A stretch of DNA of 8,161 nucleotides from a virus (Duplodnaviria; Heunggongvirae; Uroviricota; Caudoviricetes): IMG/VR virus record IMGVR_UViG_3300029886_000031, one strand, 5' to 3'. The notes under the pieces are model-generated. The model searched no databases, was not told the origin of the DNA, and worked only from the letters and a program-made list of their open reading frames with translations. Both the position numbers and the translations under genes were made by a program. Of this stretch, positions 1 through 7,436 are shown in pieces. Numbering within the stretch: the stretch's first letter is position 1; each line of letters starts with the position of its first letter.

Positions 1-1149
1 CTGAAGCTGTAGCGGAATCCCACGCCGTTATCATCCACCACCACATCGCTGTTGGTGTACGGCCACACCACATCCGACGGGCGGTCCTGAACGAACGTCA
101 GCGTCTGACCGTTCCATACCGGCATACAGCGCATCGCAGAGCAGAAATCACTGAGAACGTCCCACGCCTTACGCTGTTGTGCCAGGTACGCATTAAAGGT
201 CATCCGCGGCTCGGTCCCCCCGAAACCATCCGGGACCGTCTGGTCGCAGTACTGCCCGATGGCATACAGCGCCCACTTGTCCACATCCGCCGCCCCCAGA
301 CGTTTTCCCATGCCGTAGCGCGGGTGAGTCAGCATGTCCCACAGACACCAGGCCGGGTTGTTGCTGTATGCCGGTTTCAGACTGCCGTCCCAGATNNNNN
401 NNNNNACTATACGTGCGTTTTTCCGGGTCATAGTTTGACGGCACCTGGATGATGCGACCGCGGATATGGTAGTTCACCGTCATCTGCTGGCCGCCGAACT
501 GCTCCGCATCCACCTGCAGCCCCACAATGGCCGTGTTCGGGTAGCACTGTTTCACATCGATGATTTCGGTGTATGACGACCACAGCGTCTTATTCTGCAG
601 CTGGTCCGTGGTGCTGTCCGCCGTCTCCCTGACCATCCGGATGTTAAAGGGCCGGGGAGGCAGATTATCCAGAATCACCGAGGCCAGGAACTGTGAGGTG
701 GTCTTGCCGTTAATGGTGACGTCCTTTTCTGTCACCCAGTTACCGTTACGCTGTAACTGAATCAGCAGGCGGACGGATGCCGGGTTACGGTCACCCTTTG
801 AGGTGGTCTCCACCAGTGACTGCACCCCGAAGGTAACCCGCAGGCGGTCAATGTTCGCGGACGTAATGGTGCGCGTCACCGGTTTTGCCTTCGTCACTTC
901 CACGCCCAGTCCGGTTTCAGCTCCGGAGGACTCAAAGCCTTCCGGTGGTGTCTGCTCCTGCTCCCCGGCGCGCCAGACCGCCGTCACACCGTGTATCACG
1001 GGATTGCCGTCCGTGTCCGTCAGTGGGGTTTTGTTCACCAGAATACTCTGCAGTCCCTTCACCGGACCTTCTATCGGTCCCTCACCAATCGCATCAATCA
1101 CGCTCATCATCTCACGAGGCGTGTGTGCCTTACCGCCACCTTTTCCCAT
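1..1149 (-). CDS. J: Host specificity protein J (central tail fibre / tail tip), N-terminal part; C-terminus lies beyond the window start. Apparent frame break at the N-run 396-405 is an assembly artefact.
   Basis: Translation from ATG at 1147-1149 (MGKGGGKAHTPREMMSVIDAIGEGPIEGP...GEQEQTPPEGFESSG...TRTITSANIDRLR...FNIRM...DSTTDQLQNKTLWSSYTEIIDVKQCYPNT) closely resembles the lambda J N-terminus as I recall it. Below the N-run the homology continues in a different frame (my manual translation of 1-395 gives IWDGSLKPAYSNNPAWCLWDMLTHPRYGMGKRLGAADVDKWALY...). SD-like GGGGAAGG on the mRNA (plus coords 1154-1161) 4 nt upstream of ATG. Confidence 0.93.
396..405. other. Assembly gap / ambiguous bases (10 N) inside gene J
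   Basis: Run of N seen directly. J homology continues on both sides but in different frames, so the N length does not equal the true missing length. Confidence 0.95.
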
Positions 1150-1253
1150 ACAGCCTTCCCCTGAATAAATTAACCGCCACTTGCCATTCCGTACAGAAGT
1201 CGGATATCCTTCGCCCGAAAAGCATGAAACACATTTCTGCCATGCTAAAGAGA

Positions 1254-1288
1254 AACCCCGGTATCAGCAGATACCGGGGTTTTCTTTC
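1254..1288. terminator. Hairpin with pyrimidine/T-rich tracts on both sides; candidate bidirectional rho-independent terminator in the I-J spacer
   Basis: Perfect 12-bp inverted repeat AACCCCGGTATC (1254-1265) / GATACCGGGGTT (1270-1281) with 4-nt loop AGCA. Followed on plus strand by TTCTTTC; on minus strand the stem is followed by UCUCUUU. Confidence 0.5.
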
Positions 1289-1354
1289 ATGCCCACCGAT
1301 AATCCTGTTGGTTAAAACCGGTAATGGCATAAAAATTCTGAATATCTTCACATT

Positions 1355-1382
1355 TTCACACACTGACTGTGGCGCTTATAAT
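1355..1382 (+). promoter_or_regulatory. Candidate sigma70 promoter (-35 TTCACA, 16-bp spacer, -10 TATAAT) reading rightwards, opposite to the tail genes
   Basis: TTCACA at 1355-1360 (5/6 match to TTGACA), perfect TATAAT at 1377-1382, AT-rich upstream tract (ATAAAAATTCTGAATATC) that could act as an UP element. Pattern match only. Confidence 0.4.
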
Positions 1383-1388
1383 TTCGCT

Positions 1389-1487
1389 GCGTTAGTGTTT
1401 TTTTGCCCGAGTAACAAAAACAACTCCTTAACATTGATCTTCATTTGTCTGTCCCCGCAGCTCCGCGATCACTGCGGGATTTTTTTA
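1389..1487 (+). ncRNA. Candidate small RNA (about 100 nt) transcribed from the I-J spacer, from the predicted promoter to an intrinsic terminator
   Basis: Predicted start about 7 nt downstream of the -10 (around 1388-1390), 3' end at the terminator U-tract (around 1486). No plausible ORF with an RBS on this strand within the unit. Contains an unstructured A/U-rich stretch with CUCCUUA (1424-1430). Ends are inferred, not measured. Confidence 0.3.
1454..1487 (+). terminator. Rho-independent terminator (plus-strand orientation)
   Basis: GC-rich 7-bp stem CCCGCAG (1454-1460) / CTGCGGG (1472-1478), 11-nt loop, followed by ATTTTTTTAT (1479-1488). On the minus strand the hairpin is preceded, not followed, by the A/T run, so it is unidirectional for plus-strand transcripts. 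Confidence 0.6.
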
Positions 1488-1491
1488 TGTT

Positions 1492-2172
1492 TTATCCCTG
1501 TCGCCCGATAACCACGACCGTTCCGCCCCCGCCTTCATCACGGGTGCTGATGTCCTGGGATATACGGCGGGAGCCAACCAGCATTTCCCCGTAAGGCACC
1601 GGCATCGGGTTCCCCTGGGCAATCATGTTATCCAGCGAGGAAAAGTACGTGTTCTGTCTGCCGTTATCCGTTGCGCGGTAATCCGGTGTTTTTGCCTTCG
1701 GGGCCAGCATCTGGGCCACACCGCCCAGAATCATGCTGGCTCCAAGTGAAAACAGCATCGTGGTGGCAGAAAAACCACCGGCTGCCAGGGCTGAACCCCA
1801 TAACGCCATTGATGCCCCGGCAGTGAAGAAAGAGCCCACGATGGCTGCCGCCCCCAGCACAATCTGCAGTCCACCCTTTCCGGCCCCGGCCAGTCGCGGC
1901 ACAATATGGATGACCGTTCCCTCACCCAGCTGTTCGTGAAGACGGGCGTACACCGCCTCCGGTGCCGTGTCATAACCGGCAATACGTATCTGGTACCAGC
2001 CTTCGTTCATCTGACGGCGAAAGCCCGGCACCTGTAACGACAGCGCCCGGATGGCTTCCGCTGCCGTGTTCACATACAGGCTGAGGCGGCGGCCAAATCG
2101 TTGTAAATCCCCGTGAAGGCAGATGCGTGCCAGTGGCGGTGACGCCAGACAGAATGCGTTCGTCGTTGCCAT
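1492..2172 (-). CDS. I: Tail assembly protein I
   Basis: 226-aa translation (ARICLHGDLQRFGRR...AEAIRAL...WYQIRIAGYD...IHIVPRLAGAGKGG...QIVLGAAAIVGSFFTAGAS...LFSLGASMILGGVAQMLAPKAKTP...NTYFSSLDNMIAQGNPMPVPYGEMLVGSRRISQDISTRDEGGGG) strongly resembles lambda gpI as recalled. Its start lies 103 bp inside the 3' end of K, as in lambda. Confidence 0.93.
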   Translation of the reverse strand: MATTNAFCLASPPLARICLHGDLQRFGRRLSLYVNTAAEAIRALSLQVPGFRRQMNEGWYQIRIAGYDTAPEAVYARLHEQLGEGTVIHIVPRLAGAGKGGLQIVLGAAAIVGSFFTAGASMALWGSALAAGGFSATTMLFSLGASMILGGVAQMLAPKAKTPDYRATDNGRQNTYFSSLDNMIAQGNPMPVPYGEMLVGSRRISQDISTRDEGGGGTVVVIGRQG

Positions 2173-2812
2173 TTTTCGGAATACCTCTCCCGTTTACTCA
2201 GTTGTTCAGGCAGATGGTGAAGCAGCTCACCGTTGCCGCAGTAAATGGCGGCATGGTTCGGTACCGAAGCACCAAAGCAGCACAGCAGAATATCGCCCGC
2301 CTGTGCAGAGGACAGGGGCACCCGGTAAAAGCCGGTGACCGCCATATTGTCCAGGTAAAGGTTCTGACCGTTGCGCCACCAGTCATCCTCGCGATGAAAA
2401 TCCGGCATTTCAGTCCCCGCCAGATGATAAGCATCCCGGAACAGCGTGTAACAGTCCGTCACCCCGTGCTCAAAGCGCGTCCTGTCAGATGTGGCACACA
2501 GCGGAATTTGTGAATGTCACCCCGGCAGACCAGCCACCAGGGCAGTGCGCTTTTTATCTGCAGCCGCCGGTCAGCCTCGCTCAGCCAGGGCAGCCCACCG
2601 GGATGACTGTGGACCAGTGCCACAATCTCCCCCTGCATCTCTGCCCGCAGCCAGTCTTCCGGTGCGATACGAAAATACGCCTCCGGCTCTGCAGAAATAT
2701 TCACACAAGGGATATACCACTCCCCCTCCGACGTGCTTATCACGAAGCCGCACGACTCCGCAGGCGCACACCGCCGGGCATGCGCCAGAATCGCTGATTC
2801 AGTCTGTGTCAT
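2070..2812 (-). pseudogene. K: Tail tip assembly protein K (JAB/MPN-like N-terminal and NlpC/P60-like C-terminal regions), disrupted by an apparent 1-nt deletion; reads as two ORFs (2459-2812 and 2070-2462)
   Basis: N-terminal ORF from ATG at 2810-2812 (MTQTESAILAHARRCAPAESCGFVIS...EIVALVHSHPGG...DIHKFRCVPHLTGR) stops at TGA 2459-2461. The homology continues in the +1 frame (TDCYTLFRDAYHLAG...DFHREDDWWRNGQNLYLDN...LLCCFG...PNHAAIYCG...ELLHHLPEQLSKRERY...AFTGIY) to the stop at 2070-2072. Lambda K as I recall it reads ...HLTGRRFEHGVTDCYTLF... continuously, implying one missing base near 2475-2480. Could be a real inactivating mutation or a sequencing error in a draft assembly. Confidence 0.6.
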
Positions 2813-2822
2813 AAACCGGGAT

Positions 2823-3521
2823 TTACTGCGAAAGTTTATTAATGGAAAGGAAACCGCCAAAATTGCCGACATTCCTGCGCAGTTCACACCCGCGCATGCA
2901 CTTGCTGCATCTGTCCTTACGGATATCCGTGGTGGGGTTGTCGAACTCATCCGCCACCGCAGGACCGTTATACCCGCATTCATCTCCCCGGTAATCCCAC
3001 ATACAGGTGTTCGCCAGCATGATGCGACCGGGAAACAGCGCCCCATCCGTCTCGGTCGGTGTAGCCAGCACAAACGAGGCCGTCATGGCTGTCAGCTGCG
3101 ACATCTGCTCCACCACCCAGCGGTCACTCAGCTCCTGCTCCGGGTCCGCCTCCGGATTGCCCGCAACGAAATTCACCGCATCCAGAAAACGGGCATACAC
3201 CCGGCGGCGGACCACCGTGGCCCCCACCAGACTCTGCAGGTCTTCCGCCATCCCGGTGACCAGACCGAACAGATTGGACACCGTCAGCGACGGTCTGGCA
3301 CTGCTGCCCTTCCCGCTCATCTCAAAACCGCTGCCGTCAATCGGGTATGCCTGATATTGCCGCCCCTGCCAGGTGACCGGCTCCCCTTTTTCATTCAGCT
3401 CATTACAGAAAAAATACCGCTCACCGCCCTGTACCGTCAGGTCGATTTCCCAGAGTACCACCCGCGGTGACTGCTCTGACTTAACCGACTCGTTCAGACT
3501 TTCTTCGCGAATATCCTGCAT
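2823..3521 (-). CDS. L: Minor tail protein L (tail tip assembly)
   Basis: 232-aa translation (MQDIREESLNE...VVLWEIDLT...GGERYFFCNELNEKGEPVTWQGRQYQAYPI...MLANTCMWDYRGDECGYNGPAVADE...CSKCMRGC...NVGNFGGFLSINKLSQ) is highly similar to lambda gpL, including the conserved Cys cluster. ATG at 3519-3521 overlaps the M stop (ATGA). Confidence 0.95.
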   Translation of the reverse strand: MQDIREESLNESVKSEQSPRVVLWEIDLTVQGGERYFFCNELNEKGEPVTWQGRQYQAYPIDGSGFEMSGKGSSARPSLTVSNLFGLVTGMAEDLQSLVGATVVRRRVYARFLDAVNFVAGNPEADPEQELSDRWVVEQMSQLTAMTASFVLATPTETDGALFPGRIMLANTCMWDYRGDECGYNGPAVADEFDNPTTDIRKDRCSKCMRGCELRRNVGNFGGFLSINKLSQ

Positions 3522-3847: not shown

Positions 3848-6800
3848 TCAGCATTCCTCCGTCACGTCGCATGGACAGCATCACCGCCTGCACCCGCTGG
3901 TCAATCAGCTGCACAAGACTGCCTGCCGCCTCCGCCCCTATCTGTCCGTTAGCCCCGTCATTCTGAATGGCGATGTGGTAGACCGGGGAATACACCAGAC
4001 CGGCACTGCCGTTCATACTGCCCACCGCGCGTACGCCCAGCGAGCCATCCGCCGCCCGGGTCAGGGGCATAATGGCTTCAGGTCCGGCTTCCCCCATCAG
4101 CCCGGCCCCTTTTGCAAACGCAAAGTACGTGGGCGTGTCCACAATGCTGTTGCTGTACGCACTCAGGTTTGCCGAGGTATACACGCCGCCTTTTGCATTG
4201 GCCACCGCACCGCCCAGCCAGTCACCAATGCTGCCAATAAATCCTCCCGCACCGGACATACCGTTTGCCGCCGTCTTAATTCCGTTGACAATCGCAGCAT
4301 TCATAAGAACTTTTGAGATTTCCTGCAGTACGGATGAGGCCCAGTTGCGCCATTCCACTTTGTTTCCGTTCAGCATCTCCGTGATGTTATTCACCATCCC
4401 TGAGATACCCTCCGTCGCAAGCTGTGCTGCCTGTGAGGCGTAATCGGATGCATTGTCCACCCAGTTACTGAGCCCCTCCTGCAAGCCTTTCTGCCAGTCC
4501 GCACGCTGCGCATCCGATTCGGCATAAAAGGCTGCCTGGTCCTTAAGGCGTTCGCTCAGATACTGCGCGTTCTGTGCCCGTGCCTGTCTGTAAAAATCCT
4601 CACTGATATCCCCGGTCTGATACTGAGACTGAAGGTCCGCATCCTTCTGGCGGAAGCTGTCACGGATCTGCTGCAACTCCCGCATGCGTTCCCTGGCTCG
4701 TTCTCCCTGCCCGTATCCCAGCAGTTCGGCTTCATTTGATGCACGCGCAGCCACATTATCATTCTTCAGGGTCTCTTCCCGGGATCGCAACTGTTCCCGG
4801 ATTTTTTGCTGGTCAATCAGGGCCGCGTTACGCAGCAGTTCCTGCTTCTGCATCTCCGTCAGGGTTTTCAGTTCGCCCTGCGCAGTCTGGTACTTCAGCT
4901 TCGCCAGCTCTGTATTCTGACCCGCCAGTGCCAGTTGCTCTTTCTGCTGCTTCAGTAGCCGGGAAAAACTGTCTTCCGCTTTTTCCGTCTCTGATTTTCC
5001 ACCCCGGGATTTAGGTTTGTTCGCCTCGTTATTACGCCAGGCTTCCAGAGCATTACTGATATAACGCTGTCTCGCCTCCTGATACGAATCCCCCACAAAA
5101 CCAAGGTCATCCGCCGCATACCCCAGCCGGGCACGCTCTTTTTCCTCCCCCTTCAGTCGGGACAGGGCCAGCTCACGTTCTGTTTTTGTCAGGGCGCTCT
5201 GCTGTTTATCATCCAGGGTGGCCTGCGGCAGCCGTAACGGTACATTCACCAGTCCCTGACGCTGCTGAAGCAGTTCATTCCCCAGCCCCAGCAGACGGTT
5301 GAATTCCGTATGCTGACCGTTCATAACCAGCATGGACTGGTACACCTTATTCTGCTCTGCCGCCTGCTGACGAATTAACGCCACACGACGGTCTTCCAGC
5401 CCGGCAAGCACATCCTGAATGGACTGCGCTTTTTCCTGCATCTGTGCCAGACGGGACTGCTCAACGGCAAGCTGCTCTGTNNNNNNNNNNNNNNNNNNNN
5501 NNNNNNNNNNNNNNNNNNNNNNNNNNNNNNNNNNNNNCGGTTGTCCAGCCAGGGTTAGCCAGAACATACTGATATCCAGCGATTTTTTCCTGCAGGGATT
5601 TCACCCGGCTGGCCTGTTCATCAATCAGCCGGTTCTGCTCTGCCAGCGCCGCCCGTGTTCGTCCTTCATTATCTGAGGCTTCAGGCAAAGACATTGACGG
5701 CGTTTTATGCGCGATTTCATCTATCGTCAGTGCATACTGGCGCGCTGACTCCCTGGCCTGCTCCTGATTCTGGTACAGCGTATACCATGCTGCTGCCCCC
5801 AGCATCACCAGTCCGGGTACGCCACCAACCAGTCCCAACGCACCAGTCATCAGACGTGAGCCCACCGCCGTTGTACTGTTCAGCTCATTCTGGGCTGCGG
5901 TTCTGGCAGCAATATTTCTGTTCAGGCGTTCCTGTGTGGCCGCCAGACGGGCTTCTGCAGCAATCTGCATCTCCGTCCCGCGGGCTGCCGCCACAGCCTG
6001 CTGTGCACGGTACACGGCTGCCCTTGCCCGCGCCGTGGCAATCTGCGTCCCCCTGAGCTGTGCTTCCGCCAGTGCCACTTCATTACGTGCTGCCGTCACA
6101 AGTCCTGCCGTGGCAGACACCGCTCCGGAGGCCATATTGCCAAAGTACCGGGCAACCCCGACGGCAACCAGCGCCCCCGCGGCTGTTGCCACATTATCAA
6201 TATTACCGGCAACACCGTTCAGCACGCCGGAGAGCGTTTTCGTCGCTCCGCTGGCTTCATTCGCGCCACCCACCCAGGCCATAAAGGCGTTTTCCACCTT
6301 TGTGATCCCGTCAGAGACCGTTTCCGGCATGGCGGCATATTCATCACGCAATACCCCCAGCTGGCTGATTAACGCAGGAACGACTTTATCCGCCGTCAGT
6401 TTGCCGTCGTCCGCCATCGCCTTAAGGTCTTTACGGGCCACGCCCATACCCGCAGCCAGTGCACGTACGATCCGGTCTCCGCTTTCATTGACCGAATTAA
6501 ATTCCTCACCGCGTAACACACCCTGTGCCAGCGCCTGGCTGAACTGGGTGATCACCGAGCCCGCCTCTGCCGTACTGGCACCGGAGATTTTCAGCCCCGT
6601 GGAAATGGCCTCCGTCACCTTCAGCACATCATCAGCACTGTAACCATATTCACGCATTGAGGCTGCCGAGCGGGCAAACAGGGCCGCATTATCTGAAAAT
6701 GCCGTGCCCGTCCGCTGGCTGATATCCATCAGCACTTTCTGTGATGACGAAAATTCATCGGATGACTGCGACGCCTGTTTCAGTCGGGCATTCACGGAAC

Positions 6801-7074: not shown

Positions 7075-7121
7075 TCACCTTTCTCCGGGCGTAAAAAAAC
7101 CGCCTCAGCGGTTCTCATCAT

Positions 7122-7436
7122 TCATGACTGTGCTGCGAAGCTCAGCGCGTCTTCCAGCGCCGCAAACGGATCCACCTCCGGCTTATCCTCATCCTCGCCC
7201 CAGCAGAGCATGGCGTCCTTCAGTGCAACATTCATCCCCTGTGCCCCAAAAACCGCTTTCACGATCTGTGCATTACGGATATCCCCGCGCTCATCACCCA
7301 GCGGGGATACCCTGTCGAACTCCATCCACATCATCGCCTCGCTCACACTCAGGCTGTGCCGCAGTTCGGATAAGGTGCGCCCCAGACGGAGCGCAAGTCG
7401 CATCAGAAAGCGAATTTCCGGGCGGGCTACTTTTTT
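7122..7436 (-). CDS. T: Tail assembly chaperone T portion, expressed as a G-T fusion by programmed -1 ribosomal frameshift (full fusion product spans 7122-7801)
   Basis: The -1 frame is open from the slippery site to the stop TGA at 7122-7124 (…KKVARPEIRFLMRLALRLGRTLSELRHS...EDEDKPEVDPFAALEDALSFAAQS). Arrangement matches the conserved G/GT paradigm immediately upstream of the tape measure gene. Assignment is by synteny and mechanism, not by strong sequence similarity to lambda gpT. Confidence 0.75.
   Translation of the reverse strand, partial: KKVARPEIRFLMRLALRLGRTLSELRHSLSVSEAMMWMEFDRVSPLGDERGDIRNAQIVKAVFGAQGMNVALKDAMLCWGEDEDKPEVDPFAALEDALSFAAQS

Follow-up and report, generated by a model that had tools for sequence, protein, structure and literature searches.

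Intrinsic (Rho-independent) terminators located inside late operons have already been described in lambdoid phages. In phage L/P22, such rho-independent terminators have been predicted within the late operon and their roles stated as unknown, with partial termination, or the stopping of transcription that has not been antiterminated, as the proposed functions (PMC8022706). In addition, the record of phage HK542 (Hendrix lab) annotates a rho-independent terminator inside the tail operon. Here we analyze a terminator-like hairpin located between tail genes I and J in a Caudoviricetes sequence of 8,161 nucleotides (nt) (IMG/VR virus record IMGVR_UViG_3300029886_000031), the whole of which is referred to below as the window. 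Like the phage L/P22 and HK542 elements, this hairpin is a predicted intrinsic terminator lying within a single-promoter, antiterminated late operon; unlike it, those terminators occupy other gene junctions, and for none of them has bidirectionality or pairing with an antisense small RNA (sRNA) gene been reported.

Bidirectional intrinsic terminators are built around a symmetric hairpin that is flanked by an A-tract and, on the opposite side, by a T-tract, and their classical instances lie between convergent genes. The window hairpin shares this A-tract/T-tract symmetry but, unlike the classical cases, it has no known plus-strand gene to its left, where only a weak promoter-like site was detected. 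A further point of comparison is provided by morons, segments of extra DNA that carry their own promoter and terminator between late genes (Juhala/Hendrix, as cited in PMC4104026). The I-J junction is moron-like in spanning 60 nt in lambda, ~245 nt in Stx-type phages, 342 nt in the window and ~857 nt where it holds an antisense sodC, and the sRNA gene present in the window spacer has its own promoter and terminator. The sRNA gene does not, however, use the hairpin as its terminator, given that the hairpin precedes the promoter of this gene, and the hairpin is better seen as belonging to the J leader rather than to a moron. Antisense transcription against prophage tail transcripts is also known, from STnc6030, an antisense RNA of >700 nt in the tail region of the Salmonella prophage BTP1 that presents a superinfection-immunity phenotype (PMC7067206).

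Terminator anatomy of the I-J hairpin

The minus strand of the window encodes a lambda-type tail module with the gene order G, T, H, M, L, K, I, J (Pfam), in which the I stop codon (1492-1494) and the J start codon (ATG, 1149-1147), both on the minus strand, delimit a spacer of 342 bp. As proposed in an earlier note on this DNA, the hairpin lies within this spacer and, on the operon (minus) strand, falls in the J 5' leader. In the operon direction, the hairpin and its T-tract run from 1282 to 1247, 97 nt ahead of the J ATG. The note had described a perfect, GC-rich inverted repeat of 12 bp with U-rich sequence on both sides. The repeat is indeed perfect and contains a G+C-rich 10-bp core (1256-1265/1270-1279), but its length is 13 bp rather than 12: the left arm (AAACCCCGGTATC) and the right arm (GATACCGGGGTTT) form 13 perfect pairs around the 4-nt loop AGCA, and allowing for one bulge the stem extends to ~19 pairs (~1247-1289). 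U-rich sequence is likewise present on both sides, with seven T in the nine positions of TTTTCTTTC on the plus strand, which is included in the hairpin up to 1288 as the note had drawn it, and seven in the nine positions of TTTCTCTTT on the minus strand. The flanks are thereby symmetric (AAAGAGAAA-stem-loop-stem-TTTTCTTTC), and the terminator score is positive on both strands.

The window contains no other perfect inverted repeat of 9 bp or more with a loop of 3-10 nt. Of 300 dinucleotide-shuffled versions of the window, one yielded a perfect repeat of 12 bp, the maximum observed, and none yielded one of 13 bp. RNA folding of the 1240-1295 region yielded -28.7 kcal/mol on the plus strand (z = -7.4) and -29.9 kcal/mol on the minus strand (z = -6.5), with core energies of -18.5 and -19.1 kcal/mol, respectively, and none of 200 shuffles reached the native folding energy on either strand. 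Terminator scores were computed as d = 96.59 x (-dG/length) + 18.16 x (T-tail score) - 116.87, which follows the d'Aubenton-Carafa form, using ViennaRNA energies and calibration by shuffles. The hairpin scores +32.9 on the plus strand and +22.3 on the minus strand, in keeping with the suggestion in the earlier note that terminator features are present on both strands, including the plus strand antisense to J. No other site in the window scores above 10, and shuffling of the J-proximal 160 nt gave d > 0 in one of 300 instances.

A consensus scanner applied to the window did not return the hairpin (1253-1282) in its output, the Rfam 15 covariance models yielded no match at E ≤ 1 across 1150-1491, and no paper reporting the hairpin sequence was found in the searchable literature. 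In its stem, loop, U-tract and score the hairpin has the properties of an intrinsic terminator. The hairpin is real and, judging by its anatomy, looks like a strong two-way transcription stop, and the variant found in the window is best called bidirectional.

Hairpins preceding J in lambda-like phages

The earlier note took intrinsic terminators to be unexpected within the tail operon of lambda and accordingly regarded the hairpin as unusual. This assessment is contradicted by the terminators already described inside the late operons of lambdoid phages (PMC8022706), by the I-J spacer of lambda itself and by comparison with homologs, which reveals hairpins of unrelated or no more than distantly similar sequence preceding J in Stx/Sakai prophages, HK542, phiES15, Ulliraptor and JMPW1. 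In lambda (NC_001416), the I-J spacer contains the sequence AAACCGCC-TGCG-GGCGGTTT followed by TGTCATTTAT, corresponding to a hairpin at ~15465-15484, in an element covering ~15465-15493, that is not annotated in the record and that precedes the J start (15505). Located, like its window counterpart, after the end of I and ahead of J, the lambda hairpin presents the same succession of hairpin and operon-strand T-tract. It differs from the window hairpin in its unrelated sequence, its shorter stem, its single direction (with an antisense score of -17), its distance to the J ATG (20 nt, versus 97 nt in the window) and the lack of an sRNA gene in its spacer.

This position was surveyed in 106 I-J spacers, which were taken from fetched records, IMG/VR and species-representative genomes and fall into four length classes. 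A terminator-like hairpin on the operon strand (d > 0 within 160 nt of J) is present in 93 of the 106 spacers, as compared with at most one in 300 shuffles of representative sequences. These comprise 22 of the 23 lambda-type loci (59-60 nt), 30 of the 33 Stx/Sakai-type loci (240-259 nt) and 41 of the 42 window-type loci (342-350 nt), with no instance among the eight sodC-type loci (854-857 nt). Positive scores on the antisense strand are exclusive to window-type spacers (41 loci, versus 0 in each of the other three classes), and in the other hairpin-bearing types the terminators are confined to the operon strand. In the Stx-type hairpin (CAGGCAYCC-TCCG-GGRTGCCTG plus TTGTTTTT), the T-tract is always on the operon strand, and the stem presents a compensatory exchange (ATCC/GGAT versus ACCC/GGGT). 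A Citrobacter prophage harbors an analog of the pre-J hairpin with a different sequence.

The survey was extended to a distant set of ten J-bearing phages, five of which have an I-J spacer of at least 50 nt. Canonical operon-strand terminators were identified in four of these five spacers, belonging to HK542 (d = 43.1), Cronobacter phage phiES15 (d = 44.0), Serratia phage Ulliraptor (d = 33.5) and the T1-like phage JMPW1 (d = 27.8), and no pre-J terminator was found in the five phages with spacers of up to 32 nt or overlapping genes. Together, these results demonstrate that the position of the hairpin before J is conserved, even though its sequence is not.

Several loci in the survey present features of their own. 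In JMPW1 (positions 600-676 of the locus), CCCGCCTTGCGCGGG is followed by eight T residues, with a TATAAT sequence located within 7 nt, which suggests a terminator-promoter pair and J as a putative separate transcription unit in this virulent phage. In mEp021, the fifth of the distant phages with a long spacer, an annotated HNH endonuclease gene is located between I and J (positions 142-708 of the locus). In the sodC-type loci L012, L074, L081 and L102 (854-857 nt), an antisense sodC gene, encoding a Cu/Zn superoxide dismutase recognized by eye from its translation, replaces both the sRNA promoter and the J-leader cassette described below. Lastly, identical or near-identical lambda/E. coli prophage tail sequence was detected in many contigs from unrelated organisms, including Streptomyces, Paenibacillus, Shewanella, Bradyrhizobium and others (loci L009, L013, L015-L022, L024-L028, L042-L043 and others), which is most likely the result of assembly contamination.

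The J-leader cassette and the adjoining antisense sRNA gene

The spacer harboring the hairpin (Table 1) is a mosaic, made up of a right part (~1334-1491) and a left part (1150-1333). This organization, and the EcOnc22/23/24-like sRNA gene that the spacer carries antisense to the operon, had been missed by the earlier note. The right part is found at 74-78% identity in >130 Stx and lambdoid phages, where the left part is not conserved. In Stx/Sakai-type spacers the replacement by unrelated sequence extends from the A/T-rich stretch upstream of the sRNA promoter to the J start codon. Read in operon order, the left module comprises a stem-loop (1333 to 1286), the hairpin with its T-tract, a 97-nt leader and a Shine-Dalgarno sequence, AGGGGAAGG (1162 to 1154). 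The stem-loop and the hairpin fold together with z = -5.8; an alternative, antiterminator fold upstream of the hairpin was considered and is not predicted, the upstream sequence folding into its own stem-loop.

Table 1. Features in and around the I-J spacer of the window (positions on the 8,161-nt sequence)
Feature	Position	Strand	Description
Tail-tip gene J, 5' part	193-1149	-	Pfam FNIII-A_GpJ, E = 3.6e-42
Left module, J 5'-leader cassette	1150-1333	-	184 bp; replaced as a block by unrelated sequence in Stx-type spacers
Weak promoter-like site	1181-1210	+	TTGCCA-18-TATCCT; 9/12 matches
Operon-strand T-tract	1247-1255 (1255 to 1247)	-	TTTCTCTTT; directly 3' of the stem; predicted termination zone of I-to-J transcripts
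Terminator-like hairpin	1253-1282		13-bp arms 1253-1265 and 1270-1282; loop 1266-1269
Plus-strand T-tract	1280-1288	+	TTTTCTTTC; predicted termination zone of transcripts antisense to J
Sigma-70-type promoter	1355-1382	+	TTCACA-16-TATAAT; 11/12 consensus matches; A/T-rich stretch 1331-1354 upstream
Predicted sRNA, EcOnc22/23/24 homolog	1389-1486	+	~98 nt; antisense to the tail operon
Tail assembly gene I	1492-2172	-	Longest open reading frame; Pfam Lambda_tail_I, E = 2.3e-16

The cassette (1150-1333) is present at ≥99% identity in 1,446 of 5,426 complete E. coli genomes (~27%), including that of strain Sakai, where the copy of the spacer in prophage Sp12 differs only in the loss of G1252. In the Sakai sequence NC_002695.2, this copy spans 2,217,392-2,217,732, and its hairpin is located at ~2,217,494-2,217,523. 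It is also present in 13 phage records, among them that of the mitomycin-induced Stx2 phage ASU11, which carries an identical spacer, and no further homologs were found in the phage collection. In a BLAST search for a second copy in ASU11, the one extra match reflects the palindrome aligning to its own opposite strand, and with one copy per prophage the element does not behave as a REP-like or dispersed repeat. Because the cassette is ≥99% identical in all 1,446 genomes, it yields no evidence of covariation within the hairpin. Across the 42 window-type loci we identified seven distinct variants of the left module, whose differences map almost entirely to the A/T tracts flanking the hairpin (1246-1256 and 1280). 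They comprise the loss of G1252, G1250C, A1255C, the loss of T1280 and a 5-nt deletion in locus L009, with none located in the stem core or in the promoter-like site. In a degraded prophage of E. coli NZRM4165 (~1608 in the locus), a deletion that begins within the 5' arm of the hairpin (AAAGAGAAACC|ACCGGCTG...) takes out the remaining spacer and the 3' end of gene I.

The right part of the spacer encodes a predicted sRNA whose start (1389) was inferred from the position of the -10 element and whose terminator consists of CCCGCAG (1454-1460) paired with CTGCGGG (1472-1478), followed by seven T residues (1480-1486). Alignment of 29-34 distinct alleles of this gene revealed an invariant -35 hexamer and conservation of the -10 element, of an AAUCUUC motif and of the terminator stem, which is the only conserved helix detected by alifold; two alleles present a compensated, different terminator stem. 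Hfq-CRAC peaks for EcOnc22, EcOnc23 and EcOnc24 were reported in the enterohemorrhagic E. coli Sakai prophages Sp15, Sp14 and Sp11 (Tree et al. 2014, PMC4104026), with EcOnc22 giving a Northern band of ~85 nt and being destabilized in a strain lacking hfq (PMC4104026). Expression and Hfq binding have been demonstrated for Sakai alleles of the Sp15 type only, and a 2021 review gives the function of the family as unknown. Over its first 23 nt, the EcOnc22/23/24 Northern probe is exactly complementary to the plus strand of the Sp15, Sp14 and Sp11 I-J spacers, just before the terminator. This match fixes the strand and place of the three sRNAs and implies that the new Sakai coordinates are shifted by ~+142 from the old ones. 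The window allele shares only ~75% identity with the validated Sakai EcOnc22/23/24 and is not matched by the published probe, and no Hfq peak is listed in Table S2 of Tree et al. (PMC4104026) for the Sakai Sp12 spacer, which is the window spacer minus one nucleotide. Judged by its locus, orientation, homology, promoter and terminator, the 1355-1486 region is an EcOnc22/23/24 homolog, and the likeness to these sRNAs, in the same I-J place and antisense orientation, pertains to this neighboring gene and not to the hairpin. STnc6030 provides a possible model for the sRNA gene or genes of the spacer, as an RNA expressed from a prophage and antisense to late tail transcripts, although it differs in its length (>700 nt) and in belonging to a P22-like phage.

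Several other candidates in the spacer were examined and discarded. An identity of the spacer sRNA, which is C/A-rich, with the AgvB/AsxR anti-sRNAs was ruled out, given that the genes encoding the latter sit at the pR' moron site. A small operon-strand open reading frame, MKINVKELFLLLGQKNTNAAKL (MKINVKELF..., 1372-1440, minus strand), lies antisense to the sRNA and was considered as the toxin of a type I toxin-antitoxin pair, with transcription ending at the hairpin. Some alleles seem to conserve the first codons of this frame, but the start codon is ACG instead of ATG in many of them and its length ranges from 6 to >40 codons, which ruled out this interpretation; the reading frame is probably not a gene. 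A frame of 66-77 amino acids running through the hairpin (1130-1363, annotated as a hypothetical protein in ASU11) has no Pfam match and overlaps the J start, and it was taken as spurious. Furthermore, we looked for a promoter that would point away from the sRNA promoter and drive a short minus-strand RNA ending at the hairpin; the best match was 7/12 by eye, and the scanner gave none.

The window as a whole shares 99-100% identity with a prophage of E. coli 4/1-1 and ~95% identity with Sakai prophage Sp12. Gene J and the tape-measure gene H look truncated because of N-masked segments (396-405 and 5481-5537), each of which splits J or H into two reading frames; both genes are intact in E. coli 4/1-1, where gpJ spans 3,474 bp. 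In relatives, the NCBI automatic annotation (PGAP) places the start of gene I at the equivalent of position 2073 (annotation of locus L001). In gene K, a one-base deletion at ~2478 (minus strand) with respect to the otherwise 99-100% identical E. coli 4/1-1 prophage leaves the JAB/MPN and NlpC/P60 halves in different frames (2459-3073 and 2070-2462), and it could be either a real frameshift in a defective prophage or a sequencing error. The 47-nt T-H spacer harbors an operon-strand hairpin (CCGC-TGAG-GCGG followed by seven T residues, core 7111 to 7100, d = +4.6), which accounts for an isrK-like Rfam match at 7093-7160 (minus strand) with 27.3 bits, below the gathering score of 50. A weak Rfam match to snoRNA sR32 at 1057-1114 also falls below its gathering score.

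Proposed role of the hairpin and alternative explanations

From the established anatomy, statistical significance, distribution and positional conservation of the hairpin we infer, with moderate confidence, that it acts as an intrinsic terminator, the local version of a pre-J terminator that would stop polymerase not modified by Q and would be read through during the lytic cycle. The 184-bp cassette takes the place of the shorter leader-plus-hairpin of Stx/Sakai prophages. When polymerase lacking the Q modification traverses the minus strand, as in stray or lysogen-state transcription originating in gene I or in the sRNA-gene region, the hairpin would fold and the transcript would be released at TTTCTCTTT (1255 to 1247). 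Such termination would leave J untranscribed, together with the host-range and conversion genes downstream of it, including lom and the side-tail-fibre genes. During lytic growth, Q-modified polymerase coming from pR' would read through the hairpin, and J would thus still be made. Moreover, the mirror-image arrangement of A-tract and T-tract would also stop plus-strand transcription that arrives from J in the antisense direction. The promoter of the EcOnc22-like sRNA lies ~70 nt beyond this stop, and run-in of antisense-J transcripts would thereby be blocked. We regard this scheme as the most economical, and it agrees with the two roles put forward for terminators within the late operon of phage L/P22 (PMC8022706).

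Polymerase modified by Q ignores terminators, and read-through by late antitermination would be the natural expectation for the pre-J hairpin. Q genes are annotated in both ASU11 and Sakai Sp12, which carry the window-type spacer, and the late strand of ASU11 presents nine other terminator-like hairpins, seven of them downstream of Q, including after J, lom and stf. Since ASU11 is inducible and combines an identical spacer with a Q gene and these nine other hairpins, the architecture is compatible with a working phage. As a separate observation, the plus strand of ASU11 (16700-16716) harbors a hairpin, CAGCCCCTGTGGGGCTG, followed by five T residues (d = 19.3), which is oriented against the late operon and lies in the spacer between the small hypothetical gene ASU11_gp21c and the major capsid gene.

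Several observations weigh against a role as a pre-J terminator. On the operon strand, the hairpin is located inside an operon, between I and J, and not at the end of a known unit, and its score on this strand (22.3) is lower than on the plus strand (32.9). The operon-strand T-tract region (1246-1256) is the most polymorphic part of the cassette, and locus L093, which lacks the first T of this tract, scores d = -9.4; this pattern of variation does not suggest strong purifying selection on the putative operon-strand tail. The mEp021 spacer and all eight sodC-type spacers lack an operon-strand pre-J terminator. In addition, many of the surveyed loci are redundant, consisting of lambda copies that contaminate assemblies or of clones of E. 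coli prophages, and several of the compared hairpins have in common a CC-TCCG-GG core and may be homologous, so that the number of independent hairpin origins is perhaps four or five, and not ten. To our knowledge, moreover, no purpose has been demonstrated for a pre-J terminator in any phage.

The alternatives to this proposal differ in the strand and in the molecule on which the hairpin would act. If the plus strand were the relevant one, the hairpin could end an unannotated sRNA of ~70 nt (~1217-1288), arranged in tandem with the EcOnc22-like sRNA and running cis-antisense to the J leader, or it could simply end transcripts antisense to J. The higher score and less variable T-tract of the plus strand agree with such a function, as do the restriction of plus-strand terminators to window-type spacers, the precedent of STnc6030, a promoter-like site with 9/12 matches lying 43 nt upstream of the stem and a plausible sRNA layout in which a stem-loop (AGCATG, 1221-1226, and CATGCT, 1241-1246) and an A-R-N stretch (AAGAGAAAC) precede the terminator and its U-tail. 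The promoter match, however, is at chance level, with ~3.4 such sites expected per window, and the invariance of the cassette renders its conservation uninformative. The Sakai Sp12 copy has no listed Hfq-CRAC peak, neither Rfam nor the searchable literature provided a match, and in the other spacer types terminators occur on the operon strand only. Overall, we regard a plus-strand sRNA as unlikely. A more elaborate scenario would merge both strands: the hairpin would be a pre-J checkpoint kept by selection in lambda-, HK97- and T1-like phages and, at the same time, a two-way device ending a ~70-nt cis-antisense sRNA directed against the J leader, which jointly with the EcOnc22-like sRNA would act on tail transcripts of the prophage or of superinfecting phages, as STnc6030 does in BTP1. 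We put this scenario forward as a speculation of low probability.

On the operon strand, the hairpin might instead serve as an RNA stability or processing element, either as a stem protecting the 3' end of the upstream part of the late mRNA once this has been cleaved, or as a structured 5' border of the J segment. The stability of the hairpin is high (~-29 kcal/mol), a second stem-loop lies directly upstream (1333 to 1286), the two folding as a pair with z = -5.8, and a Q-modified polymerase that ignores terminators would presumably leave the RNA structure free for another role. Such an element would nevertheless need no T-tract, yet every positional analog retains one on the operon strand. 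The stability and terminator roles are compatible with each other; we deem a stability element a rather improbable replacement for the pre-J terminator. Equally on the operon strand, attenuation, which the earlier note had put forward, would imply that even under Q a fixed fraction of late transcripts ends at the hairpin, so that J and the genes beyond it would be expressed less than the tail genes that precede them. The hairpin is strong, and attenuation is one of the two roles proposed for terminators inside late operons. The products of M, L, K and I are, however, also low-copy assembly proteins, and a dosage step placed exactly at the I-J junction is for that reason not obviously needed. 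Q-loaded complexes are, in addition, highly resistant to terminators along the entire late operon (PMC9388147), and we consider attenuation doubtful. Lastly, it is highly improbable that the palindrome acts as DNA, as a site for protein binding or recombination, or that it is a chance occurrence. Its perfect symmetry and the endpoint of the NZRM4165 deletion in its 5' arm could be invoked for a site of this type, but the shuffles exclude a chance palindrome, and the G+C-rich stem, 4-nt loop and flanking A/T tracts constitute a terminator signature. Furthermore, the pre-J slot is filled by different hairpins that maintain the hairpin and T-tract but not the sequence, and no second copy is found in the ASU11 genome.

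In kind, the hairpin is an ordinary element, a further pre-J terminator within the late operon of lambda-like phages; what is distinctive about it is its bidirectionality and its adjoining gene of the EcOnc22 family. For annotation purposes, this means that a terminator hairpin before J is the rule in lambda-like phages, and not an anomaly to be flagged. The cassette is carried by E. coli O157:H7 Sakai, for which Term-seq and dRNA-seq data (GEO GSE143631, PMC7547250), as well as Hfq and RNase E CRAC data (PRJNA197291, PRJNA310426), exist, and these data sets allow activity on either strand to be checked without the need for new experiments. The I-J junction is a compact hot spot that may contain an antisense Hfq-binding sRNA gene, sodC or an HNH endonuclease gene, and the terminator preceding J constitutes a conserved, as yet unstudied feature of these phages, lambda included.

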